A stretch of 64,000 nt of DNA from Candidatus Saccharimonadales bacterium (GTDB taxonomy: Bacteria > Patescibacteriota > UBA1384 > 2-12-FULL-50-11), in contig DATIHX010000008.1 in assembly GCA_035480235.1 (NCBI GenBank), positions 96,104 through 160,103 of the forward strand. The letters are read 5' to 3'. Position numbers and translations under genes: made by a program. Positions 6,310-54,799 of this stretch are shown here, piece after piece. Every line of letters starts with the position of its first letter. Position 1 is the stretch's first letter. The notes beneath the pieces were generated by a model. It had not been told where the DNA came from and did no database searches. It saw only the letters and a program-made list of their open reading frames with translations.

Positions 6310-6430
6310 GACCTTTTGGGGCAATAATTTAATAACCAATATTCAAGTTACAAATAATATCCAAGTTCTTAATACTTAAATATTTCCCGTTTTAAGTATT
6401 ATTTATAACTTAGCTATTGAATATTATTAC

Positions 6431-8251: not shown

Positions 8252-8275
8252 CTTGATATATTATAATATATCAAG
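8252..8275. repeat. 24-nt perfect palindrome (the core of the 54760-54799 palindrome)
   Basis: CTTGATATATTATAATATATCAAG, 85 nt upstream of the zinc-ribbon gene start. Confidence 0.9.
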
Positions 8276-8321
8276 GCGTTCGAGGGGAAAGAAGATTGTG
8301 TGTGTAAACTGGTAAGAAGCG

Positions 8322-13892: not shown

Positions 13893-13991
13893 TTCGCGAG
13901 CGTTAGCGAACGGAAGAGAATGAATAACTCATTCCTTATATATACTGGAAAAAGTTCTAAAAGGTAATTTCGCTCATTCTTTCCATTCCCC

Positions 13992-14013
13992 ATTATATCT
14001 TTAAAGATATAAT
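13992..14013. repeat. 22-nt perfect palindrome
   Basis: ATTATATCTTTAAAGATATAAT. Confidence 0.9.
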
Positions 14014-14040
14014 AGAAACCTCTCTTACCCAAGAAATATG

Positions 14041-14074
14041 TACTACGTTATGCTTTATAAAGCATAACGTAGTA
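14041..14074. repeat. 34-nt perfect palindrome
   Basis: TACTACGTTATGCTTTATAAAGCATAACGTAGTA. Confidence 0.9.
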
Positions 14075-14158
14075 TTGGCAAATACTTATTAAATCCACCA
14101 TATGTGTTTAAACATATACTGCAAGTTGGTGACGAAAAACTGAATTCAGCTAACCCTA

Positions 14159-14187
14159 TTGACAGATCTTCCAAAAAATAGTATATT
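14159..14187 (+). promoter_or_regulatory. consensus -35 promoter
   Basis: TTGACA, 17 nt, TATATT. Confidence 0.7.
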
Positions 14188-14291
14188 TCCCTTACTTTCT
14201 GCGCTACGTGCGGCGCCCTGGTCCAGTAATTTACGATTGGGGTATATACATAGTAACAAGCTCGTTCGAGCGTAGGAGGGAACAAGGAAAG

Positions 14292-14788: not shown

Positions 14789-15214
14789 TTACTTCGCAAC
14801 TTCAATACCCATCGAGCGGGCGGTGCCTTCGATGATGCGCTCAGCTTGTTCGGGTGTCCGGGCGTTCAAATCTTTCATCTTGTTTTCGGCGATAGCCCGA
14901 ATTTGGTCTTTCGTCACCTTGCCAACTTTTTCTTTTTTGGCTTGGCCGGAACCTTTTTCTAACCCAGCGGCTTTGAGTAGTTGGTTGGCGGCCGGCGGAG
15001 TTTTAGTAATAAAGCTAAAAGTCCGGTCTTCGTAGACGGTCAGCTCAACCGGAATGATATTGTCGCCCATCGCCTTAGTAGCTTCGTTGAAGCCGGTGAT
15101 GAACTCCATCATGTTAACGCCGTGCGGGCCGAGGGCCGTACCGATCTGTTGGCCGGGGACGGCTTTACCGGCCGGTGCTTGGAGCTTAATAACGACTTTA
15201 ACTTTCTTGGCCAT
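14789..15214 (-). CDS. rplK: 50S ribosomal protein L11
   Basis: Typical L11 sequence ([18 protein letters not shown]...PPAA). Confidence 0.97.
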
Positions 15215-15549
15215 TAGAATCCACCTCGCGCGAAGGTTAGTAGGCTAAACAAATACGCCAAAACTAAGATAAATACTAAAAGAATAATTGCTTGGAGGCG
15301 GCCCAGCCAATTTTCCTCTCGGCCAAGGGTGAAAATCCCAAAAATAAAGCCACTGACTAACAGAATTGGGACGCCGGCAAAAACGATCGGGTAAAGAGCG
15401 GCTAGATATGGGTTGGTCGGGGCAACGCCGCTAAAGGGCGTCGCGTTGGCGTGATCGAGAATAACGTTGAGGATCGATCCGATCAGAGCTAAGCCGACGA
15501 CGATACTTAAAGTGAAAATATTTTTTGATTGGGGTTTGTAAATTGGCAT
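15214..15549 (-). CDS. small integral membrane protein inserted between nusG and rplK
   Basis: Three predicted TM helices. Its start and stop overlap the neighbouring genes. Confidence 0.6.
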
Positions 15550-17416: not shown

Positions 17417-18528
17417 GAGGCGAAGACGAATTTTTTGTGGCGGATGTGGATGGATTCGAGGATACCGAGGGCGGCGAGGTCGACGATAATGGCAGTGCCG
17501 CCGTAGGACATGAACGGCAATGGGATACCGGTAACGGGCAGTAGCCCGACGTTAATGCCGATATGAACCACTACTTGAAATAAGAGTTTGGCGGCAATAC
17601 CGATGGCCACGAGCTGGCCGAACGGGTCGGTCGACTCTCGGGCAATCGCCAGCACCCGCAAAATTAAGAAGGCGTAGAGGCCGAGCAGGATCATCGAGCC
17701 GACAAAACCGGTGGCTTCAGCGTAGCCGGCGAAGATAAAGTCGGCGTGCGGCACCGGTAAAAAGTTAAGGACCGTTTGCGAGCCTTGGCCGAAACCGCGG
17801 CCGGTCAGCCCGCCCGAACCGACGGCGATCAGGGCCTGGCGGACGTTATAGCCTTGACCCTCTGGGTCGGAAGCGGGGTTGAGAAATGTTGCGACCCGGT
17901 TTTTTTGGTAGGGCTTGAGGTGTCCCCAGGCCAGTGGGACAGCGACCACGAACAGCGCCGCGATCACGGCGAGCGTTCGCCAGTTCGGCTTGGCCGCTAA
18001 AAACAGGACGAGAAAGATCGTTAACAAGCAACCAGCGGTACCGAGGTCGGGCTGGGCCAGAACCAAACCAAAAGAGGCAACGGCCAGTAAAATATATAGA
18101 GTGGCGGCGCGCCAACTAACCTTGCCAATTCGTCCGCTCAAAAACTTGGCTCCAAAAATAATCGCGATCAGCTTGAAAATTTCGGCCGGCTGGACTTGAA
18201 AAAACCCTAGCGTCAGCCAACGGTGGGCGCCAAAAACCTTCAACACAAACGGCAGATGACTGGCCCACATCGGCAAAAGCGGCAACAGTAAAAGTAGGCC
18301 GATAATAAAGAGGGTTGAACTGACCGAGCCGATCGCCCGGTAGTCCGAGAACATAAAAATCGCCATGAAAACCAGGCCGATAAACGCGTATAGCAGCTGG
18401 CTGAGCGCTAACGAGGCGTGATGAGCAGCAAAGGTAATGGTGTAAATAGTGACGATGCCGGTGAGGAGTAACAAGAGCGGGATGAGAAGGGAGAACCAGT
18501 CAATTGGCAAGCTAAAGAGCTTGCGCAT
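17413..18528 (-). CDS. rodA: SEDS family peptidoglycan polymerase (RodA-like)
   Basis: FtsW/RodA/SpoVE family pattern of 10 TM helices, located outside the dcw cluster. Confidence 0.88.
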   Translation of the reverse strand: MRKLFSLPIDWFSLLIPLLLLLTGIVTIYTITFAAHHASLALSQLLYAFIGLVFMAIFMFSDYRAIGSVSSTLFIIGLLLLLPLLPMWASHLPFVLKVFGAHRWLTLGFFQVQPAEIFKLIAIIFGAKFLSGRIGKVSWRAATLYILLAVASFGLVLAQPDLGTAGCLLTIFLVLFLAAKPNWRTLAVIAALFVVAVPLAWGHLKPYQKNRVATFLNPASDPEGQGYNVRQALIAVGSGGLTGRGFGQGSQTVLNFLPVPHADFIFAGYAEATGFVGSMILLGLYAFLILRVLAIARESTDPFGQLVAIGIAAKLLFQVVVHIGINVGLLPVTGIPLPFMSYGGTAIIVDLAALGILESIHIRHKKFVFAS

Positions 18529-18947
18529 TACAGCTCGCCGTCTAAGGCGAGGTTGCCCAATTCGTCGGCCCGTTGGTTTTGCTCGCGACGGACGTGAACA
18601 AAACTCACCAGGTTATCGGCTTGCTCTAGTTTCATTTTTAATTTTTGAATCGCCTCAAAATGCGGCCGGAGCTCAGCGTTTTTCATTTTGTACTCGCCGT
18701 TCAGCTGCTTGACCATTAGCTCCGAGTCGGCAAAACAGGTAATTTCGTCGCTTCGCGGCGCCAGATCGTTCAGTTTAGTTAAGGCCGCCAGCAACGCTTG
18801 ATATTCGGCCTGGTTGTTGGTGGTGGCGGGAATGGTTTCGGCGTGCTCAATTATATCAGCCGCGGGAATTTCGATGACGTAGGCGATGGCTGCTGGGCCG
18901 GGGTTACCACGAGCGGCGCCGTCGGTGTGGATACGAATTTCAGCCAT
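18528..18947 (-). CDS. rnhA: ribonuclease HI
   Basis: IHTDGAARGNPGPAA...QAEY... RNase H fold motifs. Confidence 0.9.
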   Translation of the reverse strand: MAEIRIHTDGAARGNPGPAAIAYVIEIPAADIIEHAETIPATTNNQAEYQALLAALTKLNDLAPRSDEITCFADSELMVKQLNGEYKMKNAELRPHFEAIQKLKMKLEQADNLVSFVHVRREQNQRADELGNLALDGEL

Positions 18948-18984
18948 TGCTGTACTCTAGCAATTTCGAGCAAAACTCACAATC

Positions 18985-20010
18985 CTACGGAGTGACGTTA
19001 CCGGTTCCCCCATAGACATTAAAGTCGTAGATACTAAGTAAAGTGCCGGATTTGCGGTCGACGGTGGCCAACAGCGTCCGTTTGGTGGCGCCGGCGTAAC
19101 CGGTGGCGGTGATTTTGCTGACGGTGGAATCGAAGTTAACGTTGGCGCTGGTGGTGCCGCTGGAGCTGGTGACGGTGGAAAAGGTGGCGCCGACGCTGCC
19201 CAAATTGTAACAACTGGAGCCGACGCCGCTGGTGCCGAGTGGCCGAATGCGCAAAGTGCTCGCCACGCTGCCGCCGCCGGTACCGCCTCGTATCAGCAAA
19301 TTGGTTCCCTGGGCTGCCGAGTCGTAAGTGGGCTGGCTGCCGATTTGGCTAACGACCACTTGTGGCTGGAATTGAGTGCCGCTACCGTTTTGGTTGATTT
19401 GTTGAATCGTCACCGAGCAGCCGCTGGGGTTGCCGGTCCAGCTGAATTGATAGCGAAGATAATAGTCGTTGGTTGAATCGGGAAAACCGGTTAATTCCAA
19501 GCTGTCGTCTTGGGCGATCGGGCTGGCTAATGTCAGAGCGGCGTTGGTGGTTTTGTAGTCGACTTTCAAGTCGTAGTATTGGTGAACTGGGTTGTAGCCG
19601 CTGGTCGAGGTGATGGTAGTGTTATCCTGAACGTTGCCAACGGCACTGCCGGCGGTTAGGTCGTAGCGCTCAGCAGTACTTAAGACAGCCCCGTTGGTGT
19701 CGCGGCGAATGGTGTCGACGTTGCGGCCGAACCTAAAGCGAACCAAGCCGTCTTCGATGCCGGCTTTGGCGGCGTAATAAGCAGCGACGTTATCTTCGTC
19801 GGCCGACGACTGGCCAAACTGCACCAGCGCCAACCGCTGAACGCCGAGGGTTACCGTGACGATGCCGGCCACCACCAGCATAACGAAAATTAGACTACTC
19901 GCCGAGGATCGGCGAGCAGAATTACTGAATCTTCGAATTACTGAATTACTGATTTTTTCCGGATTTAGTAATTTAGTCATTGAGTTATTACGTAATTCTT
20001 TCTTAGTCAT
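18985..20010 (-). CDS. pilin-like/minor pilin protein with an AT-rich-encoded leader
   Basis: The start is taken at the ATG overlapping the upstream stop (ATGA). N-terminus MTKKELRNNSMTKLLNPEKISNSVIRRFSNS followed by a hydrophobic helix. Confidence 0.6.
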   Translation of the reverse strand: MTKKELRNNSMTKLLNPEKISNSVIRRFSNSARRSSASSLIFVMLVVAGIVTVTLGVQRLALVQFGQSSADEDNVAAYYAAKAGIEDGLVRFRFGRNVDTIRRDTNGAVLSTAERYDLTAGSAVGNVQDNTTITSTSGYNPVHQYYDLKVDYKTTNAALTLASPIAQDDSLELTGFPDSTNDYYLRYQFSWTGNPSGCSVTIQQINQNGSGTQFQPQVVVSQIGSQPTYDSAAQGTNLLIRGGTGGGSVASTLRIRPLGTSGVGSSCYNLGSVGATFSTVTSSSGTTSANVNFDSTVSKITATGYAGATKRTLLATVDRKSGTLLSIYDFNVYGGTGNVTP

Positions 20011-20816
20011 ATTGCTCCCGGCACCACCGTGGTATCTAAAGTGTAACAGGTGCCGGCGCCGAGGGTGGCGCAAGTTTGGGCAGCATCGCCGGCCGGTTTC
20101 AGATCGAAGTGGATTTTGACGTACGGCGAAGCCGTGGCGCTTTTGGCAGCGGCGATGTCGAGACCGCTAAAGACCGGCGTCAGGCCGCCAAGGCCGTCGG
20201 CGACGTAGGCGCTGCTCAACAAGTCGGCCGGGGTGGCTGGTGGGCTGGCCGCCGCACACGGCGCGGTTTGGCTGGCGACCACGGGGTTGCCGCCGCCAAG
20301 TGGGGTGCAAACCGACAAGCCGCGCAACTCGTAGACGTAAACGCTTGGCCGGTTATTGAGGGTTTGGGCGGCGTAGAGGCGCCAAACCAAATCCCCTGCC
20401 CCGGTGGCGCCTGGGTACTTCAACAGCAGTTCGGCTTCGTCACAGCCAAAAGCGTTACCCAACCGAACGCCCGTAAAGATGCTAGCCGGCGAGCCGCAGC
20501 TGCTTTTGAGCGAAGCTGGTTGGTCGACGGTATCCACGTAGTGCAAGTCGTTGGTGAGTTGGTCAGTCACCGACCGAGCGGCTTGAACTTGGGCCCGGAC
20601 GACGTTACTTTGGCTGCTAGAGCTGACCGAACGGGCAAAAGCGGCAATGGCCAGAACGATGAGGCCGGAAAAGATCAGCACCGAGACCAGGAGTTCGATG
20701 AGGGTGTAGGCTCGGCGAGAAGCTCTCGCCGAATGACTAAATCTCTGAATTACTGAATTACTGAGTCTATTTAGTAATTTAGTAATTTCGTAATTTCGTA
20801 ATTTTTTTCTGATCAT
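20007..20816 (-). CDS. type IV pilin-like protein (pseudopilin)
   Basis: 36-aa leader, then YTLIELLVSVLIF. ATGA overlap with the upstream gene. Confidence 0.75.
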   Translation of the reverse strand: MIRKKLRNYEITKLLNRLSNSVIQRFSHSARASRRAYTLIELLVSVLIFSGLIVLAIAAFARSVSSSSQSNVVRAQVQAARSVTDQLTNDLHYVDTVDQPASLKSSCGSPASIFTGVRLGNAFGCDEAELLLKYPGATGAGDLVWRLYAAQTLNNRPSVYVYELRGLSVCTPLGGGNPVVASQTAPCAAASPPATPADLLSSAYVADGLGGLTPVFSGLDIAAAKSATASPYVKIHFDLKPAGDAAQTCATLGAGTCYTLDTTVVPGAI

Positions 20817-21640
20817 TGCCCGCTCCCCCCGGTGCCAAAGTTGGCGCCACTGAATCCAGCCGTTTGCTCAAAGCCTTTCCAGTTGGTGAGTAATGTTGCC
20901 ACGTCGGCGACGGTGAAGCCGGTTTTATTGCTTGTAACAACCACCGAGCGAACTTTGACGGCGTTGCCGGCCGGGATGATGGTGGGGCTGTTGGTAGCAA
21001 CGCTGGAGAGTTCGTCGCGATTAAGACTGGCTTGAGTGTTGGTGCAGTAGTTGTTAGCGCTGTCGCAAGGGGCGGTGGTGTGCGAGCGGTCGCCGTCGCT
21101 GGCGATCGCTGAGCCGCCGGCGCTAGTGTTACAGCTATCGGTGGTGGCGTCCCGCCGGGTAACAGCCCCGACCGACTCCAGGCAAATCAGGCGAAAAGCC
21201 GTCAGCGACTGGCTGGTTTTGGCTTCGCTATTGGTGTTGTTAAGGGTAGTAAAATCGATGGTATTGCCCAGACCAGTGGCTTTAGTGAGCGCCCAATTGT
21301 TACCGTTTTGGCTTAACGTGTACCAGCCGTAATTAGCCGGGTCGGTGGCTTCGTTGAGCCAAATTGAGTTATTGCCGTCGTTGTTGCCCGCCAGTAAATT
21401 ATCGTCGCGATGAGCGGCGGTGAGCTCCAACCCCTCGCTGGCCCAACGGTTGAGAATGGTGACATCGGCGTTAACGGCTGTCCCCCGGATAATTGAGTTG
21501 TTGAGGCCAACAATCGCCCCGGAAACGATAAATAAGATACCCCCGGCAATTAGTACTTCCAACAACGTGAAACCCTTCTTAGAATTACTAAATAACTTAA
21601 TTTTAGTAATTTTATTATTTAGTAATTTTCTTATTGCCAT
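20813..21640 (-). CDS. type IV pilin-like protein
   Basis: MAIRKLLNNKITKIKLFSNSKKG then FTLLEVLIAGGILF. Confidence 0.8.
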   Translation of the reverse strand: MAIRKLLNNKITKIKLFSNSKKGFTLLEVLIAGGILFIVSGAIVGLNNSIIRGTAVNADVTILNRWASEGLELTAAHRDDNLLAGNNDGNNSIWLNEATDPANYGWYTLSQNGNNWALTKATGLGNTIDFTTLNNTNSEAKTSQSLTAFRLICLESVGAVTRRDATTDSCNTSAGGSAIASDGDRSHTTAPCDSANNYCTNTQASLNRDELSSVATNSPTIIPAGNAVKVRSVVVTSNKTGFTVADVATLLTNWKGFEQTAGFSGANFGTGGSGQ

Positions 21641-21651
21641 TTAGTCATTAC

Positions 21652-22335
21652 CTAGTTATAGGTTGAAGTTATTTTACCGGTAAAATTATCTACATTAACT
21701 GTGGCGGTGCGGCCGTTGAAAGTCAATTGGAAAAGCGGATGAGTAAAATTGGTGATGGTATCAACCTGCCAGCTCTTGCCAACTTTGCTGAAGCTGGTCA
21801 GCTGCTTGATCGGGGCTTTGAACGCCACCACGGCCGAGCTGGCCGACTGGTTAGCGAGGCTGTCGCCGCCCGAAAGTTGATCCTGTTCAACCAAGCAGCT
21901 ACTCGAAGTGGCGGCGGCGTTGATGCCGCAACTGCCGCCGTTCAAATCGGTAGAGAGCTTAACGATCCGGTAGCTGGTTTGCCCGCTCCCCGGGGCGATG
22001 AGTAGGGCGTAATAGGTGCTGTCTGGGTCGGCTTGAAAGTTTGAACTACCCGAAGAAAGCTGGGTAGAACCGGCCAGCAGCCGGACGTACTCAATTTTAC
22101 TTTCTAGCAAGGTGACGTCGTCGGCCAGACGATTAACAGAAAGTGACCGCGAGACATTAGTCACCAAGATGCCGGTTAACAGGCCAATAATGGCGATGGT
22201 GATTAATAACTCGACCAGAGTAAAAGCCCGCTTGCGAGGGAATATCGAATATCGAATTTCGAATTTCGAAACAAATCCAAAATACAAATTCTTAAATTTC
22301 GGATTTCGGATTTCGGATTTCGGATTTTCTTTCAT
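21652..22335 (-). CDS. type IV pilin-like protein
   Basis: The start ATG overlaps the pilD stop (ATGA). 37-aa leader MKENPKSEIRNPKFKN...RKRA followed by FTLVELLITIAIIG. Confidence 0.8.
   Translation of the reverse strand: MKENPKSEIRNPKFKNLYFGFVSKFEIRYSIFPRKRAFTLVELLITIAIIGLLTGILVTNVSRSLSVNRLADDVTLLESKIEYVRLLAGSTQLSSGSSNFQADPDSTYYALLIAPGSGQTSYRIVKLSTDLNGGSCGINAAATSSSCLVEQDQLSGGDSLANQSASSAVVAFKAPIKQLTSFSKVGKSWQVDTITNFTHPLFQLTFNGRTATVNVDNFTGKITSTYN
22240..22323 (-). repeat. two heptanucleotide tandem repeats inside the pilin leader coding region
   Basis: (GAATWTC)x4 at 22240-22267 and (ATTTCGG)x4 at 22296-22323. Confidence 0.9.
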
Positions 22336-23108
22336 AGCCCCATCCCCCCAAGGTACCAAGCGATAGCCGTGGTTCCCCAAAAAAGGGCGAGCAGGCCGCC
22401 GATAATCAGGAACGGCCCAAAGGGCACGGCGGTTTTCAGTTTAGCCCGTTTGGTTAAGAGTAAAATCGCCCCAAAAACGCCGCCGATCACAAAAGCCAAT
22501 GAGACAAAAACAATGGCGTTCGGGTAACCGGCCAGTAACCCTAGGCCGGCGGCTAGCTTCAAGTCGCCCTCGCCCATCCAGGTGCCGCGGCTGGGGTAAA
22601 CCAGGAGCGCCACCGGCAGAAAACCAATCAGTGCCCCGTACAAACTGTGCAATGGGTTCTGGTAGTACAAAAGCGAAAAAATGGCGGCGCCAAAAAGCAA
22701 AACGTAGGCAAAAAAGTCCGGGATCAACATCTCTTTAAGGTCGTGGAAAAACATCACTACCAAAGCGCCAATAGCGACGATAAAAGCGATGAAAGCGCCA
22801 ATTTGGGAGGCGAGGGTTAAGCTGGAAGTATTGAAAATTAAAAAGTAGCCGCCGGCCAGCAAAAAAGCCGTGGCAGTTTCCACTACCGGGTACTGCCAGG
22901 AAATTGGCCGGCCGCAGTAACGACAGCGGCCTTTGAGGGTGGCGTAACTAATAACCGGGATCAGGTCGTACCATCTTAAATCGGTGCGGCAGTCTGGGCA
23001 GTGGGAGCGACCGGTTAAAATGGTCCGCCACTCGTCAAAGCGCAAAATCACCACGTTCAAGAATGAGCCGAAGACTAAGCCGAAAACAAAAGCGACGATT
23101 CCCCCCAT
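22332..23108 (-). CDS. pilD: prepilin peptidase (A24 family)
   Basis: CPDC...RCRYC zinc motif, multi-TM, aspartyl peptidase A24 pattern. Confidence 0.93.
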   Translation of the reverse strand: MGGIVAFVFGLVFGSFLNVVILRFDEWRTILTGRSHCPDCRTDLRWYDLIPVISYATLKGRCRYCGRPISWQYPVVETATAFLLAGGYFLIFNTSSLTLASQIGAFIAFIVAIGALVVMFFHDLKEMLIPDFFAYVLLFGAAIFSLLYYQNPLHSLYGALIGFLPVALLVYPSRGTWMGEGDLKLAAGLGLLAGYPNAIVFVSLAFVIGGVFGAILLLTKRAKLKTAVPFGPFLIIGGLLALFWGTTAIAWYLGGMGL

Positions 23109-23197
23109 ACTTCATTCATAGTAACAGTTTTAGGCGCCGAGCAAAGGAGGGATTATCCCACTTTCAATTTTCCTTAATCGATAGATTCAATTCTACT

Positions 23198-23221
23198 AAA
23201 GGCAGGGTTTCCCCTGCCTTT
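23198..23221 (-). terminator. terminator after pilA
   Basis: AAAGGCAGGG-TTTC-CCCTGCCTTT. Confidence 0.75.
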
Positions 23222-23288
23222 AGAGTTTTTCAATGAAGTTGAAAAACTATTGCGGACCGCGATGCGGGACGCAAAGAGCCTGAAATCT

Positions 23289-23855
23289 CTATTGCGGACC
23301 GTAAACGACCCAAGCTCGGACGTTGTTACCCATAGTGGTTAACTGATACGCCGCGCCGTTACCTGGCGTTACTGTACCGGTCGCGCCGGCCAAGTACTCA
23401 CCGTTACCGGTGGCGACTGTGCCTTCCGTGCCGTTCTGCAAAGCCGCGGCCGCCGCATAGTTGGTGGTCGTAGCGTTCGAGGTGTATTTGGCGGTGTTGT
23501 AGCCAGTAAACACCTGCGAAGTCGCGCCGCCGGTGACGTACGAAGCCAAACAAGCGCCCAGCGTTACCCCAGCGTTGGCGCAGTTGGAAACCGTGCCGCC
23601 GTTGATGTTGACGCCGTTAGCCGCCGCCGTTGGGTAGGCCCCGGTCGTTTGATCGGAGTAGTACTGCTCCAACGTAGTCGAGAGCGTGCGCAAGTTATTC
23701 TTGGTTTGAGTGTCGGCGGCTCGCAGACGAGCACCGGTCAGCGAAGTAATAATCAACGCCGCCAAGATACCGATAATGGCGATGACGACGAGCAATTCAA
23801 TTAACGTAAACCCGCGCCGGCCAACCAAAGCAAAACCTTTTTTCATCTTATTCAT
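23289..23855 (-). CDS. pilA: type IV major pilin
   Basis: MNKMKKGFALVGRRG then FTLIELLVVIAIIGILAAL. It has its own promoter and terminator. Confidence 0.9.
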   Translation of the reverse strand: MNKMKKGFALVGRRGFTLIELLVVIAIIGILAALIITSLTGARLRAADTQTKNNLRTLSTTLEQYYSDQTTGAYPTAAANGVNINGGTVSNCANAGVTLGACLASYVTGGATSQVFTGYNTAKYTSNATTTNYAAAAALQNGTEGTVATGNGEYLAGATGTVTPGNGAAYQLTTMGNNVRAWVVYGPQ

Positions 23856-23939
23856 TGTTTCTCCTTTAAAGACTCATGAAGATTCAGCTTTCGTCGACCG
23901 CCCCTCTCGCAAACTATACCGGTGAAAGCCATTAACCTT

Positions 23940-23968
23940 ACTATCACCTGCCACATAATGGCTGTCAA
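23940..23968 (-). promoter_or_regulatory. pilA promoter
   Basis: Minus strand reads TTGACA, 17 nt, GATAGT. Confidence 0.6.
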
Positions 23969-23987
23969 GGTGACGCGGGAAAAAGCG

Positions 23988-25064
23988 TTATTGAATGACG
24001 CTGGAAAGGTTGTAGATCGGCACGATGATGGAGAAGATCAAGAACGCCACGCCGAGGCCGACAATCACAAAGACGATCGGCTCGACCAGCGCCGAGATAT
24101 TTTTAATCTGTTGGTTGGTTTGGGCTTCGTAGAAGTCGGCCAATTTTGATAAGACCTGTTCGAGTTTGCCGGTTTTTTCGCCGGCGGCGACCATTTCGGT
24201 GATGGCCGCTGGAAATTCGGGGAATTTGGCTAAGGTTTGGGAGATCGGGGCGCCGCGCTCGACGTTGCGGGCCACCACTAAGAGAGCGTCGCGGTAGACG
24301 ACGCTGTCGAGCACCAACGCCACCGAATCGAGGGCCGTAATAATCGGCACGCCGGCCGAGATCATAATGCCCAGAATCCGGGTGAAGCGGGCCATTTCCA
24401 AAGAAACGAACATCCCGCCGAAAACCGGAATTTTAATGACCCAAGTATTAATAAAACGCTGACCTTCTTCGCTCCGGACAAAGCGGATAATTAAGTAAAT
24501 TAATATTCCCAGGCCGATAATATAGAGGTACCAGTAGGCGATCAGCGAATTGGTCAGCGCTACGACCGTCCGGGTGGTCCAGGGCAAGGTGGCGTGGCTT
24601 TGTTTGAAGACTACTTCGAGGGCTGGGACGATCTTGGTGACCATAATAATGCCAACGAAAAACATCGCCACAATAATGAAAGCTGGGTAGAGTAAGGCCC
24701 CCAAAACTTTCGAGCGGAAGCCATAATCGCGCTCCAGTTCGTCGGCTAAGAGACCTAAAGCAACGTCGAGTTTACCCGAGGCTTCGCCGGCCGCCACCAC
24801 CGAAACAAAAACGTGATTGAAAACTTTTGGATGTTTTTGGATGGCATCGGAGAATTTGTAGCCGTTTTCCAAATCAGCGACGATCGCCGTTAAGGCCGTT
24901 TGAACGGCTTTGTTTTGCGACTGCTCGGCCAGCGAACGGGTGGCTTGGGCTAGCGGCAAGCCGGCATCCAGCATCACCGCCAGTTGCCGAGCCACAAACG
25001 ACCGATCCGACGCCGGCACCGTGCCCAAAATATTGGCAATAGACAGGCTTTGGGTCTGGGCCAC
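23988..25064 (-). CDS. pilC: type IV pilus platform protein (GspF/PilC family)
   Basis: Two GspF-like repeats with three TM helices. GTG start. Confidence 0.93.
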   Translation of the reverse strand: MAQTQSLSIANILGTVPASDRSFVARQLAVMLDAGLPLAQATRSLAEQSQNKAVQTALTAIVADLENGYKFSDAIQKHPKVFNHVFVSVVAAGEASGKLDVALGLLADELERDYGFRSKVLGALLYPAFIIVAMFFVGIIMVTKIVPALEVVFKQSHATLPWTTRTVVALTNSLIAYWYLYIIGLGILIYLIIRFVRSEEGQRFINTWVIKIPVFGGMFVSLEMARFTRILGIMISAGVPIITALDSVALVLDSVVYRDALLVVARNVERGAPISQTLAKFPEFPAAITEMVAAGEKTGKLEQVLSKLADFYEAQTNQQIKNISALVEPIVFVIVGLGVAFLIFSIIVPIYNLSSVIQ

Positions 25065-25129
25065 TAGAAATCTCCGATTTCTAGAATTACTAAATTACTG
25101 AATTTTTCCGGATTTAGTAATTTAATCAT
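25064..25129 (-). other. 21-codon AT-rich mini-ORF whose stop overlaps the pilC start (TAGTG)
   Basis: MIKLLNPEKFSNLVILEIGDF*. The nucleotide module is shared with the pilin leaders. Confidence 0.4.
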
Positions 25130-25197
25130 TTTGCGAAGTGATAACAGAGCGAATGTAAATGGATAATACATTTAGTAATTTAGTAATTATTTCCTCG

Positions 25198-26265
25198 TTA
25201 GTAGACCATCATCTTGAAGGCTTTCGGGTCGATCGCCCAAGCCAGCGCCGTGTCGATGGTAATCTCGCCGCGACTGACTAATTCGGCTAAGACTTTATCG
25301 AGGGCGATCATCCCTTCAGAGGCCGAGGTCTGAATAATGTTGGGTAGTTGGTGAGTCTTGCCTTCGCGGATGGTGTTACGAACGGCTGAGTTGGCCACCA
25401 TAATTTCGGTGGCCAGCACCCGCCCGCCCTGAACTTTCGGCAACAAACGCTGCGAGACCACGCCCAAAAGGACGTTAGCGAGTTGCATCCGCACTTGCAT
25501 TTGTTGATGCGGCGGGAAAACGTCGATAATTCGGTCGGCGGTTTGGGCGGCCGAGTTGGTGTGTAAAGTAGTGAACACCAGGTGGCCGGTTTCAGCCAGG
25601 GTTAAGGCGGCTTCGATGGTTTCCAAATCGCGCATCTCGCCCACTAAAACCACGTTCGGGTCCTCGCGCAAGGCGCTGCGCAAAGCCCGGCTGAAGGAAT
25701 TGGTATCAACGCCAACTTCTCGCTGAACGACGATCGACTTTTGATGCTCAAAAACGTACTCGATCGGGTCTTCGATGGTAATAATGTGTTCGGCCCGGGT
25801 TTGGTTGATATGCTCCACCAGCGCCGCCAAGGTGGTGGATTTGCCGTGACCGGTTGGGCCGGTAATGATCACAAAACCCTGGCTGGGCTCGGCAAAGCGC
25901 TCGAGAATTGGCGGCACGCCGAGTTGTTCCATCGTTTTAATGGCCACTGGAATCAGCCGCAGCGCCGCCCCGATGTTGCCCTTTTGGTAAAAAGCGTTGG
26001 TTCGGAAGCGCATCTTTTGGTAACCGAATGAAAAATCCAGCTCCCGCCGGGTAGTCAGCCGCTCTGTTTGCTCCGGCGTCATAATGCTGGAGAGTAGCCG
26101 TTCGGCCGTTTCGGCGGTCAGGACGCCTTGGTCGGTCAGCGCCAACAGCCGGCCGTCAACTCGCAAAATCGGTGGCGTCCCCACCGTGATATGTAAATCC
26201 GAAGCGTTTTTCTCGACCGCTAAGTCGAGTAAACTTTTCATCTGGGCAGTCAAAGCTTCAGCCAT
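25198..26265 (-). CDS. pilT: twitching motility ATPase PilT
   Basis: GPTGHGKST Walker A, 355 aa, PilT family. Confidence 0.95.
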   Translation of the reverse strand: MAEALTAQMKSLLDLAVEKNASDLHITVGTPPILRVDGRLLALTDQGVLTAETAERLLSSIMTPEQTERLTTRRELDFSFGYQKMRFRTNAFYQKGNIGAALRLIPVAIKTMEQLGVPPILERFAEPSQGFVIITGPTGHGKSTTLAALVEHINQTRAEHIITIEDPIEYVFEHQKSIVVQREVGVDTNSFSRALRSALREDPNVVLVGEMRDLETIEAALTLAETGHLVFTTLHTNSAAQTADRIIDVFPPHQQMQVRMQLANVLLGVVSQRLLPKVQGGRVLATEIMVANSAVRNTIREGKTHQLPNIIQTSASEGMIALDKVLAELVSRGEITIDTALAWAIDPKAFKMMVY

Positions 26266-26428
26266 TGTTAATTCCCTCCATGCTTATTCCCATCGTACAA
26301 TAAATAATTTTCATCGGCGAATCTGCCAACATTACAAATATCCAATAACCAATAATCAAGTAGCAAGGATTGAATATTAATTATTTGATTATTATTTGAA
26401 TATTGACTATTGATTATTGAAAATTTTT

Positions 26429-28903
26429 TCATTCGGTCGTTCCTGGTACTTCTTTAATCGAGGTCATGGTGACGCGCATCACTTCATCCACCGTCGTTAA
26501 GCCCTTGAGGGCTTTCATCAAGCCGTCTTGGACCATCGTCACCATGCCGTTTTTGATCGCCGCTTTCTGCAGCTCCGAGGCCGGGGCTTTCTTGACGGCC
26601 AAGTTTTCGATTTCTTCGTTCATCGCCATAACTTCGAAGATACCCACCCGGCCGCGGAAGCCATCGGTGCAGTTCGGGCAGCCTTTGCCGTGGTAGAAAA
26701 CCAGTTGCTCCAGATCCACCGCCTTCAACTGGCCGCTCGGCACGGCCGCCAATTCCCGTTGAGCCCGGGCCAACACCGCCGGCGGCACCGCCACTTTTTC
26801 CCGGCAGTCTTCGCAAATCCGCCGCACCAACCGCTGGCCGATGACGGCGTTTAACGACGAAGTGATGAGGAACGGCTCGATGCCCATATCGATCAAGCGC
26901 GGCAGCGCCCCCGAGGCTTCGTTGGTGTGAAGGGTGGAAAGCACCAAGTGGCCGGTCAGGGCCGCCTGGGTAGCCATCGCCGCCGTTTCCAAATCGCGGA
27001 TTTCGCCGACCATAATGACATTCGGGTCTTGGCGCAGCACCGAGCGCAAACCTTCGGCAAAAGTAAAGCCGATCTGCGGCATCACCTGGGCTTGGTTCAA
27101 ACCTGGCAGCTCGTACTCTACCGGGTCTTCCAGGGTAATAATGTTGACGCCGGGGCGGGAGATGCGCGTTAAAATGGAGTAAAGCGTGGTCGATTTACCG
27201 CTACCGGTCGGGCCGGTAGAGAGGATAATGCCGTACGGCTTGGCGATGTTTTTAATTAAGACGTCGAAGTTCGAGCCGGTCAGGCCCAACTGCTCCAGCG
27301 TTTGCATGCCCTCGGATTTATCCAGCAAGCGCATCACCACTTTTTCGCCGTGAATGGTCGGCAAGGTGGAAACCCGCAAATCGACTTGCCGTTTATCCAG
27401 CACCACATCAAACCGGCCGTCTTGCGGCACCCGGCTCTCGTCGATTTTCATTTTGGAGAGGATCTTAATGCGGGCGATGAGCGGCGCGTGCAAAAAGCTC
27501 GGCGCCTTAACGATGTCGTGCAAAATGCCGTCGATCCGGTAACGAATCCGCAAGTACTCTTTTTCGGTTTCCAGGTGGACGTCGCTGGCCCGCATCCGGA
27601 TGGCTAAGAACAGCACCGCTGCCACTACTTCCGGCACCATGCCGGTTTTGAAGACTTCGGCCAAATCAGCGGTGGAAGTGACTGGTTTTTTGATCAATTT
27701 ATCGAGGTCTTGGTCTTCCAATGAGGCCTGCTGGGCCTCGGCCATCCGGGCCAGCTCCTTCACCGACTCGGCTGTTGGCCGGTTGACGATATCGCCAGCC
27801 GTTAAGGTGACCAATGTTTGCTCGCCGGCGGCTGGCGGTTGGCTTTCACTCCTTAAAATCGGCGACGGGGTGGCCGAAGCTGGCACGGTTTCGCCGGTGG
27901 CAGCGCCTGGCGGGGCACCGGCCGTTTCCGCCAGAGGCGCGGCCGAAGGCAGCGCGCTTGGTGGTTGTTCGACCTGGCGAGCCGGATGGTAATACTTGGC
28001 TTCGGGGTAGAGCTTGAGCGCCGCTTCAAAAGAGGCCGTCGTCGTGCGGTAGCGGTCGATCAGCAGTTTGTTCCGGTTTTCGATGTAGGCCAAAATTTCT
28101 TTGACGTGGAGGCTCTCGGGTTCCACCATCGCCACTTTAATCATCGGCGGCTCGAATGGCCCGGGGTGGCGGCTGGCGTCAAAAACAATCAGTTGGTACC
28201 GTTTGGCTACCGCGTAAGGGATTTGGTTGAGAGTGGCCGGCGGAATTGCTTGGCCAGTTAAATCAATGGTTTTACCGACGCCTTCGACGGTTTTATGGAG
28301 CTCGGAATGTGCCGGCGTCGCGGCGATTGGCAGGCTTTTGGGCGGGGCCGGCGGAAGCGGCAGAATGTCGAGCGGAGCCGGTTTCAACTCGGCCGCTGGT
28401 TGGTCGTAGGCTTTAATCACCACCGCCTCGGCGTCGCCCGGCGGCACCACCACCAATTTAATATGGAGGCCTTTTTCTTTGCGCAGCCGCACCAACGCCC
28501 CCGGGGCGTCGCGCTGCAACAGCGCCGGGTCGGTAACGGCCAGGGTCAAAACGGCATTTTTCAGCTCGAAGGGTAGCACCTTATAGCGTTCGATCGCCTC
28601 GCGCGGCAAGAGCTTGACCACGCTGGGGTTAATCGGCCGGTCAACTAACCGTTCAAACGGTAAGCCAAAAAATTCGGCCAAGAGCTCCAAGAGCGGCTGC
28701 GGCTCAACCAGCCGGTGGTGCAGAATATAGGCGCGAATTTCGGCGATGGTTCGGCCGTGCAAAACTTGCCGGAAGCCGGGTTTCAGCAGCCCTTTTTCCA
28801 CCAAAAAATTCAGCAAACTCCGGGCAGAAGCGCTGGCTGGGGCGGAGAGATCGCCGGGCCGCGCTACCTTGTCCTCAACCGGTAAGTGGGTGTTGGCCGG
28901 CAT
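26429..28903 (-). CDS. pilB: type IV pilus assembly ATPase PilB/GspE with a long N-terminal extension
   Basis: GPTGSGKST, tetracysteine CEDC...CPNC, N-terminal GspE_N-like domains and a Pro/Ala-rich linker. Confidence 0.93.
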   Translation of the reverse strand: MPANTHLPVEDKVARPGDLSAPASASARSLLNFLVEKGLLKPGFRQVLHGRTIAEIRAYILHHRLVEPQPLLELLAEFFGLPFERLVDRPINPSVVKLLPREAIERYKVLPFELKNAVLTLAVTDPALLQRDAPGALVRLRKEKGLHIKLVVVPPGDAEAVVIKAYDQPAAELKPAPLDILPLPPAPPKSLPIAATPAHSELHKTVEGVGKTIDLTGQAIPPATLNQIPYAVAKRYQLIVFDASRHPGPFEPPMIKVAMVEPESLHVKEILAYIENRNKLLIDRYRTTTASFEAALKLYPEAKYYHPARQVEQPPSALPSAAPLAETAGAPPGAATGETVPASATPSPILRSESQPPAAGEQTLVTLTAGDIVNRPTAESVKELARMAEAQQASLEDQDLDKLIKKPVTSTADLAEVFKTGMVPEVVAAVLFLAIRMRASDVHLETEKEYLRIRYRIDGILHDIVKAPSFLHAPLIARIKILSKMKIDESRVPQDGRFDVVLDKRQVDLRVSTLPTIHGEKVVMRLLDKSEGMQTLEQLGLTGSNFDVLIKNIAKPYGIILSTGPTGSGKSTTLYSILTRISRPGVNIITLEDPVEYELPGLNQAQVMPQIGFTFAEGLRSVLRQDPNVIMVGEIRDLETAAMATQAALTGHLVLSTLHTNEASGALPRLIDMGIEPFLITSSLNAVIGQRLVRRICEDCREKVAVPPAVLARAQRELAAVPSGQLKAVDLEQLVFYHGKGCPNCTDGFRGRVGIFEVMAMNEEIENLAVKKAPASELQKAAIKNGMVTMVQDGLMKALKGLTTVDEVMRVTMTSIKEVPGTTE

Positions 28904-44061: not shown

Positions 44062-45666
44062 CTAAGTGCTTTTTTCTTTGACCATCTTGCTCGGCGCAGA
44101 AATCCCCATCAACTCCAGCGTTCGCTTGACGGTAATACTCGCTGCTTTCAAAATTGCTAAGCGGGATTGAGCGATTTCCGCTGGTTCGCCCAGCACCCGG
44201 AGCTTCTCGTAAAACGTGTGAACGTCGGTGGCCAAAGCTGTAGCGAAATGGGCCAGTTTGTGAACTTCCAAACTTCCGCTGAGTTCGGCCACCAAATCCG
44301 GAAATTGAATAATCCGCAGCAATAACTGCCGCTCGGCTGGCTGCGACAAAACGATTTTTTCCGGCAACTCAAACTCGTTTTCCTTGGAAAATTCCCGAAA
44401 GATCGAGGAAATCCGGGCGTAGGCGTATTGAATATAAAACACCGGATTTTGGCTGGAACTCGACTTGGCGATATCAAAATTAAAATCGAGATGGCTATCA
44501 ACCGAGCGTGACAGGAAAAAGAACCGGGCGACGTCAGCACCGACTTCATCCAACACTTCATCCAACGCCACGTAATTGCCGGCTCGTTTACTCATCTTCA
44601 CTTCTTTGCCTTTTTCAAACAGCCGAACAATTTGGGTGATCACCCAATCGAGCTGGCCGCCCCAGGTGTAATGATCACGGAGCACCCCTTCAATAACCAT
44701 GTTCATTTGACGAGTGTACTGGAAGTGGTCAGCGCCGCCGACCCAAATCAACCGGTGATAACCACGTTGGATTTTGTAGCTATGATAAGCGATGTCGTTC
44801 GCAAAGTACGTCGGCAAGCCGTCGGAACGGACCAAAACCCGGTCTTCCGAGTCGCCAAAACGAGTGGTCGAGAGCCAAGTGGCGCCGTCAGCGTCGTAGG
44901 TGAGGCCGCGCAGCTTCAATAAATCCATCGTTTTTTTATAAACGCCGGTTTGATGCAACGATTTTTCCGAGAAAAACTGATGGAAATTAATCCCTAACTG
45001 ACGCAAAACCGGCTTAATCATCGTTTCCATGATAATCACCACCGCCTCTTCGCCGGCGTCGCGATCGGTTTTAGCCTTAATTCGGCTCCGGAGCTCGTCG
45101 ACGTACGGACCGCTATATTGTTTGGCTGGATCGTCGCCGTGCAAAACCGAGTGGCCCAGGTGATCGACTTGGGTGCCGGTATCGTTCAAGTAGAACTCCC
45201 GCATCACCGTACAGCCGTAGAGCTCGAGGACCCGGGCGATCGCTTCGCCCACAAAGGCGCCGCGACCGTTAGCCAGCGTTAATGGCCCGGTTGGGTTAGC
45301 CGAAACATATTCCAACAAAACCCGGGTTTCTTTGCCGGCATCGCTTTTGCCGAAATTGTCGGGCGATTTCAATATTGCCGCAACAGTAGTGGCCAAATAA
45401 TCGTCGGTGACGGTGAAATTAATAAAACCGGGCGTGGCGACGTTAACCGAGCGAAAACTCTGATGAGCCGTTAACTCGGCGACAATTTTTTGAGCCAGGG
45501 CCACCGGGGCCTGGCCGGCCGGCTCGGCGCCGACCAAAGCGACGTTAGTGGAAAAATCGCCGAAAATTGGTTTTTTCGCCGGCTCGATAGCAAAAACCGG
45601 TGGCTCGGCTTGAACCACTTTTTTATAAGCCTGACGAATATGTTCGCGCAGTTCGCCTAAAACCAT
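44062..45666 (-). CDS. argS: arginyl-tRNA synthetase
   Basis: SANPTGPL (HIGH-equivalent), MSKRAG and a DALR anticodon-binding C-terminus. Confidence 0.95.
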   Translation of the reverse strand: MVLGELREHIRQAYKKVVQAEPPVFAIEPAKKPIFGDFSTNVALVGAEPAGQAPVALAQKIVAELTAHQSFRSVNVATPGFINFTVTDDYLATTVAAILKSPDNFGKSDAGKETRVLLEYVSANPTGPLTLANGRGAFVGEAIARVLELYGCTVMREFYLNDTGTQVDHLGHSVLHGDDPAKQYSGPYVDELRSRIKAKTDRDAGEEAVVIIMETMIKPVLRQLGINFHQFFSEKSLHQTGVYKKTMDLLKLRGLTYDADGATWLSTTRFGDSEDRVLVRSDGLPTYFANDIAYHSYKIQRGYHRLIWVGGADHFQYTRQMNMVIEGVLRDHYTWGGQLDWVITQIVRLFEKGKEVKMSKRAGNYVALDEVLDEVGADVARFFFLSRSVDSHLDFNFDIAKSSSSQNPVFYIQYAYARISSIFREFSKENEFELPEKIVLSQPAERQLLLRIIQFPDLVAELSGSLEVHKLAHFATALATDVHTFYEKLRVLGEPAEIAQSRLAILKAASITVKRTLELMGISAPSKMVKEKST

Positions 45667-45667
45667 A

Positions 45668-45733
45668 TCAATAAAGAATTATTAAATTACTGAATTTTTG
45701 AATTACAAAATTAGAATTGAGTAATTTAGTCAT
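45668..45733 (-). other. 21-codon AT-rich mini-ORF ending 1 nt before the argS ATG
   Basis: MTKLLNSNFVIQKFSNLIILY*. The module is shared with the pilin leaders. Confidence 0.4.
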
Positions 45734-45822
45734 TGAGTTATTTAGTAATTTGGCCAGGCGGAATTGATCGTACCGACTAAACAACAACCCCAGTATATTC
45801 TTCACTTAGCCAATCAGCAACA

Positions 45823-54759: not shown

Positions 54760-54799
54760 CACGTACCCTTGATATATTATAATATATCAAGGGTACGTG
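54760..54799. repeat. 40-nt perfect palindrome upstream of recJ
   Basis: CACGTACCCTTGATATATTATAATATATCAAGGGTACGTG. The inner 24 nt are identical to 8252-8275. Confidence 0.92.

Follow-up and report, generated by a model that had tools for sequence, protein, structure and literature searches.

Like the Rickettsia palindromic elements (RPEs), the AT-rich repeat described here is a short, dispersed, palindromic sequence of a reduced genome, which has an open frame, encodes a conserved peptide and is fused in frame to host open reading frames (ORFs) whose orthologues lack it (PMC10969869). It lies in a 64,000-nt stretch (hereafter the window; contig DATIHX010000008.1, positions 96,104 to 160,103) of the Candidatus Saccharimonadales bacterium assembly GCA_035480235.1, where it makes up the 5' ends of g1 to g4, four genes of a type IV pilus operon, of which g1, g2 and g3 encode minor-pilin-like prepilins with long leaders. 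We think it probable (about 0.6) that these leaders are lineage-specific, in-frame-tolerated copies of a dispersed AT-rich palindromic repeat and not a new pilus mechanism. RPEs are the closest functional analogue, and the comparison is one of analogy. The element is about 50-100 nt long and consists of tandem 7-8-nt units in two inverted arrays, whereas RPEs are about 150 bp long and are not built of short tandem units. Unlike with RPEs, the insertions here lie only at gene boundaries and in cleavable N-terminal leaders and not in protein interiors, and the copies that are not fused form bridging ORFs translationally coupled to the next gene.

The nearest counterparts in the literature are the TAACTGA heptamers known from Beggiatoaceae, Cyanobacteria and Bacteroidetes (MacGregor 2015), which the element resembles, as it does the cyanobacterial short tandemly repeated repetitive (STRR) heptamers, in its short-period, AT-rich tandem units (TTACTGA(A)). 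Like the element, TAACTGA repeats cluster at start codons or just upstream of them, also in ribosomal protein genes, and are occasionally translated at protein termini (reverse LSVISYQ, against SNSVIQ here) (PMC4679880). However, the units here are 8-nt AAATTAC(T/G) or 7-nt AAATCCG/AAATTCG and not TAACTGA, so the two are of a related kind but are different repeats. Unlike those of TAACTGA repeats, the arrays are short (2-4 units) and are paired with an inverted array to give a hairpin. Perfect arrays have stops in every frame, whereas in Saccharimonadales one frame is free of stops in most of the copies examined. Compared with the TAACTGA-type location, a few nucleotides upstream of start codons, the copies not fused to a gene end at the next start, overlap it or stop 1 nt before it (pilC, argS and the ribosomal protein gene S8), and those of g1-g4 lie downstream of the start.

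[quoted passage not shown] Unlike MITEs, the element has a tandem-unit AT-rich build, and no terminal inverted repeats around a unique core, consistent target-site duplication or partner transposase were identified here.

Type IV pili of Saccharibacteria mediate host attachment and motility (PMC11623550). Prepilin leaders are hydrophilic and 6-26 aa long; those of type IVa (T4a) pilins usually have fewer than 10 and up to 18 aa, and type IVb and Tad/Flp prepilins have hydrophilic leaders of 15-30 aa that are removed by prepilin peptidase (PMC4471445). The 23-aa leader of g2 is within the type IVb range and those of g1 and g3 exceed it. Unlike in type IVb/Tad systems, the machinery here is T4a-like (PilB, PilT, PilC, PilO and FTLIEL-type N-termini), the orthologues have leaders of 5-12 aa, and the extra leader length is repeat DNA and not a conserved family trait. 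What is new here is that the units are built into hairpins copied whole, that copies lie in class III leaders, and that bridging ORFs are found consistently at the sites without fusion.

Leaders of the pilin-like genes

The type IV pilus cluster lies on the minus strand in the order pilO, pilB, pilT, pilC, major pilin gene (23289-23855), pilD (22332-23108), g1 (21652-22335), g2 (20813-21640), g3 (20007-20816) and g4 (18985-20010), followed by rnhA. The prepilin peptidase gene pilD (Pfam A24_N_bact 1.6e-32, Peptidase_A24 1.2e-14) is directly upstream of g1, so that peptidase and assembly genes are all near the prepilins. The first-pass annotation, made from the sequence alone, had described four pilin-like genes chained by ATGA start/stop overlaps. 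All three overlaps that it listed are present in the sequence: 22335/22332, where the TGA stop of pilD overlaps the ATG of g1, 20816/20813 (g2/g3) and 20010/20007 (g3/g4). The chain is interrupted between g1 and g2, which have an 11-nt spacer instead.

The products of g1 (227 aa), g2 (275 aa) and g3 (269 aa) were tested against the prepilin models Pfam PF07963 (cut-off 21.2 bits) and TIGR02532 (cut-off 16.3 bits). For g1, PF07963 (N_methyl) gave 30.7 bits at aa 34-57 and TIGR02532 gave 25.7 bits. For g2, TIGR02532 gave 16.4 bits, borderline against its cut-off, and Pfam N_methyl 19.9 bits, with the motif at aa 19-43. For g3, TIGR02532 gave 18.2 bits at aa 35-57, and the methylation motif was placed at residues 32-57. 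The g1 leader is 37 aa long (MKENPKSEIRNPKFKNLYFGFVSKFEIRYSIFPRKRA, then FTLVELL), that of g2 23 aa (MAIRKLLNNKITKIKLFSNSKKG, then FTLLEV) and that of g3 36 aa (MIRKKLRNYEITKLLNRLSNSVIQRFSHSARASRRA, then YTLIELL). The proposed mature N-terminus (F/Y)TL(I/L/V)E and leader length of 23-37 aa thus hold for these three genes but not for g4. The 341-aa g4 protein, at the expected place of a PilX-like minor pilin, matched no Pfam, NCBIfam or prepilin model and has neither (F/Y)TLxE nor Glu5. About 39 residues, MTKKELRNNSMTKLLNPEKISNSVIRRFSNSARRSSASS, stand ahead of its hydrophobic helix SLIFVMLVVAG, without a class III cleavage motif. Prepilin status of g4 is therefore not established.

The leader peptides are hydrophilic and basic, with a net charge of +7 to +9. 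The peptide (T)KLLN...SNSVI(Q/R)RFS, which had been reported as common to the leaders, is present in g3 and g4. As had also been noted, two leaders end in Ala at position -1, those of g1 and g3; both lack the Gly -1 of class III leaders, which g2 has. Ala is also found in four of five g1 orthologues, so in g1 it is independent of the insert. In g3 it occurs only in this genome, all six orthologues having Gly. The first 23-39 codons of g1-g4 have 19-35% GC against 52-62% in the gene bodies. An earlier estimate of 25-30% GC for the leaders in a genome of about 58% GC has to be corrected, as the measured values are 0.35, 0.19, 0.34 and 0.35 (g1 to g4) and the window has 52% GC overall.

We compared three assemblies of this organism, namely the window and the loci L001 and L002 (other loci are numbered likewise); one of the latter two came from an independent read set. 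The operon regions of the three are identical, L002 equals L001, and the window differs from L001 by one single-nucleotide polymorphism (SNP) elsewhere. The window matches a contig of metagenome-assembled genome GCA_964636455.1 (annotated Candidatus Saccharimonadales) with a single SNP. Since the operon regions agree in three assemblies, the leaders are not an assembly artefact. Independent gene calls on two other assemblies gave the same g1-g4 starts.

A strong GC-rich stem-loop of 12 bp at 23196-23223 separates the major pilin gene from pilD; it probably acts as terminator or attenuator of pilA and reduces read-through into pilD and g1-g4.

Repeat arrays and hairpins in the leader segments

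The repeat words named in the first-pass annotation occur far above chance: AAATTACTNAAT with up to one mismatch had 23 matches against 1.35 expected, and TCAGTAATTYAGTAATTC with up to two mismatches had 7 against 0. A build from common short repeats holds for g2-g4, which use AAATTAC(T/G) and its complement, but g1 has a different unit, (AAATCCG)4 with (AAATTCG)2(ATATTCG)2. The plan of the leaders, which had escaped the earlier reading, is a set of direct 7-8-nt units, a short loop, and then complementary units, i.e. inverted arrays. The inverted arms found in g2, in g4, upstream of pilC and upstream of argS are 19-33 nt long and 73-85% complementary; for the element in general, arm complementarity was 73-89%.

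All four segments are on the minus strand. That of g1 (22225-22335, 35% GC) has (AAATCCG)4 at 22296-22329; after a loop of 12 nt comes, at 22241-22283, an array complementary to it in part, which reads ATTTTGGATTTG plus (TTCGAAA)2(TTCGATA)2. The g2 segment (21572-21640, 19% GC) has arms at 21583-21602 and 21608-21627 that are 85% complementary. The g3 segment (20709-20816, 34% GC) has an octamer hairpin at about 20732-20804, with (AAATTACG)2(AAATTACT)2, a loop and (TCAGTAAT)2 TCAGAGAT TTAGTCAT, and a GC stem-loop at 20713-20731, CGGCGAGA-gct-TCTCGCCG. The 5' segment of g4 (19894-20010, 35% GC) has octamer arms at 19918-19950 and 19967-19999 and a GC stem-loop at 19895-19919, CTGCTCGCCGA-tcc-TCGGCGAGTAG, with the perfect 8-bp GC stem CTCGCCGA-tcc-TCGGCGAG. 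The 8-bp GC stem-loop directly follows the hairpin in both g3 and g4 and encodes Arg/Ala/Ser-rich residues right before the helix; a similar GC stem is present in the g4 orthologue of L003. In g4 it is followed by the T-rich run TCTAATTTTC and scores as intrinsic-terminator-like, and could attenuate g4 expression.

The predicted RNA fold of most segments is a long hairpin of ~7-bp helices split by single mismatches. Against dinucleotide shuffles, the fold z-scores were -2.6 (g2), -4.4 (g3), -3.7 (g4), -2.4 (upstream of pilC), -2.6 (pilB-pilT element), -2.8 (cysS element) and 0.0 (g1), and seven of ten copies from other genomes had -2.0 to -5.1. Weak values, 0 to -1.7, were obtained for g1, the copy upstream of argS, L004 g1, L008 g3 and the copy upstream of pilC in L003. 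Predicted folding energies were -10 to -30 kcal/mol for window segments of 83-143 nt, some of which include the GC stem-loop, so that the AT-rich arms account for only part of them.

A nucleotide-level alignment of the copies, which had been suggested as a check, gave 77% identity over 92 nt between g3 and g4, and 93% identity over 47 nt, loop included, between g4 and the copy in the pilT-pilC spacer. The copies have loops and flanks in common, so what is repeated is the hairpin as a whole. The leader-coding DNA is then, as had been proposed, not ordinary coding sequence but a copy of a repeated module.

An Rfam scan of 18500-26700 at E <= 1 gave only mir-1290, with 28 bits against a gathering threshold of 82. 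The match (22240-22329) is on the plus strand, opposite to the g1 hairpin, and was judged spurious; AT-rich hairpins draw such miRNA matches. A promoter scan found 7 promoter-like sites against 5.4 in shuffles, none of them at a leader element, and the GC stem-loop of g4 was the only terminator-like element there.

Copies outside the pilin leaders

Five AATTACT-type copies are present in the 64-kb window. The copy in the pilT-pilC spacer (25064-25189, minus strand) has an octamer array at 25170-25189 and arms at 25085-25103 and 25112-25130, and the hairpin is followed by the stem-loop CTAGAAATC-gga-GATTTCTAG, whose loop contains GGAG. The element is spanned by an ORF of 35 aa (25171-25064), and the TAG stop of this ORF overlaps the GTG start of pilC. 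In L004 the orthologous pilT-pilC copy ends in the same way (...ILEMGDF, then the stop in TAGTG), and its hairpin pairing is kept with different units. Another copy (45668-45805, minus strand; arms 45684-45713 and 45722-45751) lies between a pilin-like gene (45823-46689) and argS (44062-45666). One frame is open over this entire spacer and ends in TGA-T-ATG, with the stop 1 nt before the argS ATG.

In other metagenomes, a copy between the ribosomal protein genes S14 and S8 forms an ORF of 48 aa that overlaps both neighbours, the upstream stop at its start (TAATG) and the S8 ATG at its stop, and a further copy comes directly after mraZ. At the three junctions that were read (pilC, argS, S8), the short ORF of the non-fused copy ends at, overlaps or stops 1 nt before the next start. 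The copies at pilT-pilC, pilin-argS, S14-S8 and mraZ show that the element is a nucleotide-level repeat and not a pilin leader module. The S14-S8 and post-mraZ copies also rule out an element of a pilus-specific regulon as the sole explanation.

Two AT-rich hairpins of other composition were found in the window. Between pilB and pilT (26268-26432, minus strand) a 26%-GC hairpin with units such as CAATAAT/ATTATTG carries a 54-aa ORF, whose ATG overlaps the pilB stop (ATGA) and whose stop lies 2 nt before the pilT ATG. Its frame stays open in 0.4% of shuffles (P 0.004). In L001 and L004 it is among the called genes; in L003 and L006, which have spacers of 61-64 nt, it is absent. Downstream of cysS (6330-6426, strand not assigned) there is an AT-rich tandem-repeat hairpin with 30-nt arms that are 80% complementary, the sole such element in the window not beside a pilus gene.

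Orthologous loci with and without the element

Six syntenic Saccharimonadales loci were used for comparison with orthologues. Among them, the mature part of g3 is 58-84% identical and the leader has 10-36 aa. Short g3 leaders read MKIGLTKQPG and MKTRLKKRGG, and the closest relative (84% identity) has one of 12 aa, MIKKFRFSRKPG. Each of g1-g4 has a canonical leader of 5-12 aa in at least one relative, e.g. MRHRRG↓FTL, MQKRG↓FTL and MSKRGSS↓LIF (arrows mark the end of the leader). The leaders of g1 orthologues include MRHRRG, MKRTA and MMTNRKAETSYRRA, the g2 orthologue of L004 has MQKRG, and g4 orthologues start with MSKRGSS↓LIF or MKNISQLKKRGSS↓LIF.

Filled sites also occur among the relatives. 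L004 has a 47-aa g1 leader with an ITKLL...SNSAIQSF element, and inserts in g3 and g4 as well; L008 g3 carries a AGTTTTCAAAG/AAACTGG hairpin insert. In L006 and L007 no gene covered has a hairpin, and L005 is without the g3 copy at 84% protein identity. A comparison of leaders among strains had been suggested. Length and repeats do vary among the six related loci, but no variation was seen among the three assemblies of this organism. What the relatives show is thus that hairpin repeats were gained, lost or turned over in the course of evolution, not that cassettes were exchanged.

The boundaries of the inserts could be read from filled and empty sites. Against its L008 orthologue, g1 has a 93-nt in-frame insert, a multiple of three, between ATGAAA and CGC. 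Against L004, g2 has an insert of about 48 nt with AAGA on both sides. In insert-free orthologues, too, the ATG of g1, g3 and g4 overlaps the stop of the gene before it, and sites with and without an insert have their first codons in common: L005 and the window share ATGATCA(A/G)AAAA, L008 and the window ATGAAA. Therefore the inserts of this genome lie downstream of the ancestral start.

The g2 orthologue of L003 (9144-10004, GCA_034680565.1) has a doubled prepilin N-terminus, MQKRGQKKRKG↓FSLLEVLI...(32 aa)...RS↓FTLLEVLIAGG. In the profile search described below, a doubled plan, FTLIELLV...FTLIELLVVIAII, was seen in many short pilin-like proteins of the Planctomycetota-Verrucomicrobiota-Chlamydiota (PVC) group (P0010-P0025).

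Probable translation of the repeats

The first-pass annotation had named an internal start with a ribosome binding site just before the hydrophobic helix as the observation that would speak against long leaders. No such start was found in g1-g4. In g2 and g3 there is no in-frame ATG, GTG or TTG between the repeat and the mature N-terminus. The internal candidates are TTG at codon 17 of g1 and ATG at codon 11 of g4, which still leave leaders of 21 and 29 aa. No purine-rich Shine-Dalgarno (SD) tract stands ahead of the ATA or ATT candidates, whereas a G-rich SD-like sequence precedes the annotated ATGs of g1, g3 and g4.

The pilin frame is open through 23-39 AT-rich codons, and each other frame has 1-7 stops; shuffled leaders keep the frame open in 5-6% of trials. 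A perfect octamer array gives a stop within about three units in any frame. At places where TAA would result from a perfect unit, the leaders have stop-avoiding variants: CAG AGA, CGA AGA or CAA AAA in unit three of the 3' array, and TAC GAA instead of TAC TAA in 5' units. Because there is no canonical internal start, the frame is open, units avoid stops and the peptides are basic and hydrophilic, the repeats are most likely translated as the leader and then removed by PilD, as far as the sequence can tell. Initiation would take place at the upstream ATG, and PilD would cleave leaders of 23-37 aa, two of them ending in Ala. L037 and L004 g4 differ in that the ATG lies in the apical loop and the 5' arm is untranslated.

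Proposed origin of the long leaders

We propose the following course for the origin of the leaders. Each copy of the element consists of two inverted arrays of 7-8-nt units, whose transcript is predicted to fold into a long hairpin, often with a short GC-rich stem-loop after it. The element would build up at gene boundaries of the compact, translationally coupled operons of this Saccharimonadales clade. Since boundary genes abut or overlap, a copy would survive only if ribosomes can read through it. Ahead of ordinary genes a copy could persist as a short bridging ORF; ahead of prepilin genes it would come to lie downstream of the conserved overlapping start and be absorbed in frame into the leader. 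The leader is the part of a pilin that is expected to be cytoplasmic, hydrophilic and basic and to be removed by PilD, and the mature pilin would be unchanged. AT-rich codons would supply Lys/Asn/Ile/Ser/Arg-rich peptides, which suit the role of a leader. We infer that the insertions are nearly neutral, and likewise the manner in which the element is copied.

Several observations weigh against this proposal. The leaders of g1 and g3 (36-37 aa) are outside the 6-26 aa range (PMC4471445) and have Ala at -1, where Gly is described as nearly invariant. Shuffles fold as well as the g1 element does (z = 0). As to mobility, the AAGA on either side of the g2 insert could be a 4-bp duplication, but g1 and g3 show none when filled sites are compared with empty ones, no transposase was found in a search confined to the window, and terminal inverted repeats are not evident beyond the palindrome as a whole. 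The L003 g1 orthologue contains a proto-repeat, AAATCGGAAAGCGGAAAC, that hints at expansion in place rather than insertion. At pilC, L001 and L004 have kept the end of the upstream ORF (uORF) although the arms have diverged, and the hairpins still pair with other unit sequences; both observations fit selection on structure or translation. Finally, hairpins of the window are strongly enriched at pilus-gene junctions (7 of ~15 against 1 of ~45, Fisher p = 1e-4, with approximate counts); this may reflect tolerance, local copying or function.

Some of these points would be expected if the hairpins were functional cis-acting RNA at cistron boundaries, acting on re-initiation, early ribosome speed, segmental mRNA stability or pilus stoichiometry, with the long leader as a by-product of placing an RNA element within overlapping genes. 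The enrichment at pilus-gene junctions counts for this explanation, as do the recurrence of hairpins in pilin leaders of several distinct Saccharimonadales-like genomes and the orthologous pilT-pilC hairpin, kept with different units and with a conserved coupled uORF end. The start codon or SD is sometimes in the loop (ATG in L037 and L004 g4, GGAG before pilC), and the g4 GC stem-loop is terminator-like. Start-proximal repeats have been proposed as post-transcriptional signals, with TAACTGA as precedent (PMC4679880). The position of the hairpin is, however, inconsistent with respect to the start codon (upstream, spanning or downstream), close relatives have the same operon without hairpins (L006 and L007 in all genes covered, L005 in g3), and copies occur in unrelated operons (the ribosomal protein cluster, after mraZ). 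The unit sequences differ, which makes a single trans factor unlikely, no Rfam family matches, and the AT-rich hairpins are weak and should be melted by translating ribosomes. REP/BIME elements play a similar role in enterobacterial operons. We regard a regulatory RNA as unlikely.

A further possibility, to which we give little credence, is that the octamer hairpin is a translated repeat specialised for the compact, translationally coupled operons of Saccharibacteria, whose own start and open frame let it span cistrons with coupling intact, and that hairpin and long leader were co-opted in pilus operons for the timing or amount of minor pilins, for PilD processing or for slippage switching. 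If this were true, repeat DNA within a signal peptide would adjust how an episymbiont is piliated.

Repeats in the leader region, such as CTCTT in Neisseria opa, phase-vary surface proteins. Slipped-strand change of one unit could likewise toggle a minor pilin here, and maybe the downstream coupled genes, and so give phase-variable piliation; a single unit gained or lost changes the reading frame, neither 7 nor 8 being divisible by three. Like opa-type contingency repeats, the leaders have tandem units of a length not divisible by three in the leader-coding part of a gene for a surface structure. Four perfect tandem heptamers lie inside the g1 ORF, octamer units occur 2-4 times in g3 and g4, and phase variation that depends on simple sequence repeats is the subject of a paper on Haemophilus (PMC12721329). 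Unlike opa-type repeats, however, those here have low copy numbers, mostly imperfect units and inverted arrays. Few and mostly imperfect units imply low slippage rates, and no difference in repeat number was seen among the window, L001 and L002. Phase variation also leaves the inverted-array plan and the non-coding copies unexplained, and we hold it to be very unlikely.

Still less probable is that the long leaders are an illusion of annotation, g1-g3 starting at ATA, ATT or ATC shortly before the cleavage site and the hairpins being untranslated spacers. In-frame ATA and ATT codons do exist, and ATA at codon 31 of g1 would give a canonical 7-aa leader, (M)FPRKRA↓FTL; the untranslated 5' arm of L037 and L004 g4 is a real case of this kind. 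The annotated ATGs, however, are the conserved stop-overlapping starts of insert-free orthologues, and the codon and SD survey, the open frame with stops in both others and the stop-avoiding units given above all speak for the upstream starts.

The cassette-like, recombining leader module of the first-pass annotation, dedicated to pilins and exchanged among their genes to vary the leader, has to be abandoned as the least probable explanation: the g3, g4 and pilC-upstream copies do share mosaic stretches of 77-93% identity, and the conserved pilin N-terminal coding region could in principle offer homology for gene conversion, but the module stands at non-pilin junctions, does not vary among the three assemblies, has no silent donor cassettes in the 64-kb window, and encodes a part that is cut off before assembly, so that its variation would not diversify the pilus.

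If dispersed repeat copies are indeed the source of the leaders, a compact genome of overlapping genes accommodates repeat DNA in cleavable leaders and short bridging ORFs, which extends the RPE idea to another phylum and to signal peptides. Saccharibacteria pilins with repeat-encoded leaders of 23-47 aa may be missed or mis-started, because predictors of pilins and signal peptides assume short class III leaders. If PilD processes leaders of 36-37 aa that end in Ala, the accepted substrate range of prepilin peptidases widens.

Occurrence in other genomes

Further copies of the element were found in L004, L037/L138, L134, L140 and L141, with 64-82% identity; over 76-97 nt, those of L037, L134 and L140 match g3 and g4 at 72-82% identity. 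A metagenome scan for two AGTAATTC words with an FTLIE-coding sequence within 38 nt found further pilins with the same element. In L134, three pilin genes have leaders ending ...SNLVIQKF(S/R)NSxSG↓F(T/S)LIE.

A profile search with leader and pilin N-terminus in a word-indexed protein database was swamped by ordinary pilins. An exhaustive HMM profile search of 1.84 billion representative proteins gave 22 matches at E <= 0.001. Among its results was a second pilin family, in which leaders range from MKKNG and MRKPA up to repeat-encoded ones of 27-35 aa, and a few stand-alone ORFs of 35-89 aa that are the translated element. Repeat-encoded pilin leaders are recurrent in this clade and rare overall.

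Octamer arrays of the type (TCAGTAAT)n are more widespread. A species-level genome collection had them at more than 118 loci, mostly intergenic and often beside start codons or tRNA genes, in phyla that include Bacteroidota, Kapaibacteria, Gammaproteobacteria, Planctomycetota and Cyanobacteria. A link with pilins in these other phyla was rejected, as the motif was found at 3 of 118 loci, which is background; the only real case was L037 of Saccharibacteria. The octamer arrays of many phyla may be of one class with the TAACTGA/STRR repeats, which are poorly understood. The exact octamer strings had no match in a literature search.

Variants of the octamer array, CCGTACTT and CAGTACCT, were seen in L010-L127, often paired with an inverse array (GGAATTAC...) and frequently at contig ends. 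Kapaibacterium ZLKRG19 has at least 10 octamer-array loci. An identical tRNA-flanked octamer-array region is found in a contig that carries the label 'Patescibacteria group bacterium' (JBILLF01) and in one of Kapaibacterium (L017/L025), which suggests that the JBILLF01 bin is mislabelled.

Other features of the window

A perfect 40-nt palindrome, CACGTACCCTTGATATATTA abutting TAATATATCAAGGGTACGTG, lies at 54760-54799, and its core CTTGATATATTATAATATATCAAG recurs intergenically at about 8262-8287. An operator, a terminator or a further repeat family are possible readings. Another perfect palindrome, 34 nt long (TACTACGTTATGCTTTA abutting TAAAGCATAACGTAGTA), lies at 14041-14074 within a 300-nt intergenic island of 31% GC (13902-14200) upstream of the rplK region. 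Between nusG and rplK there is a 111-aa ORF (15214-15549, minus strand) with no Pfam match on record, which is also present in L007 but not in L003 or L006.

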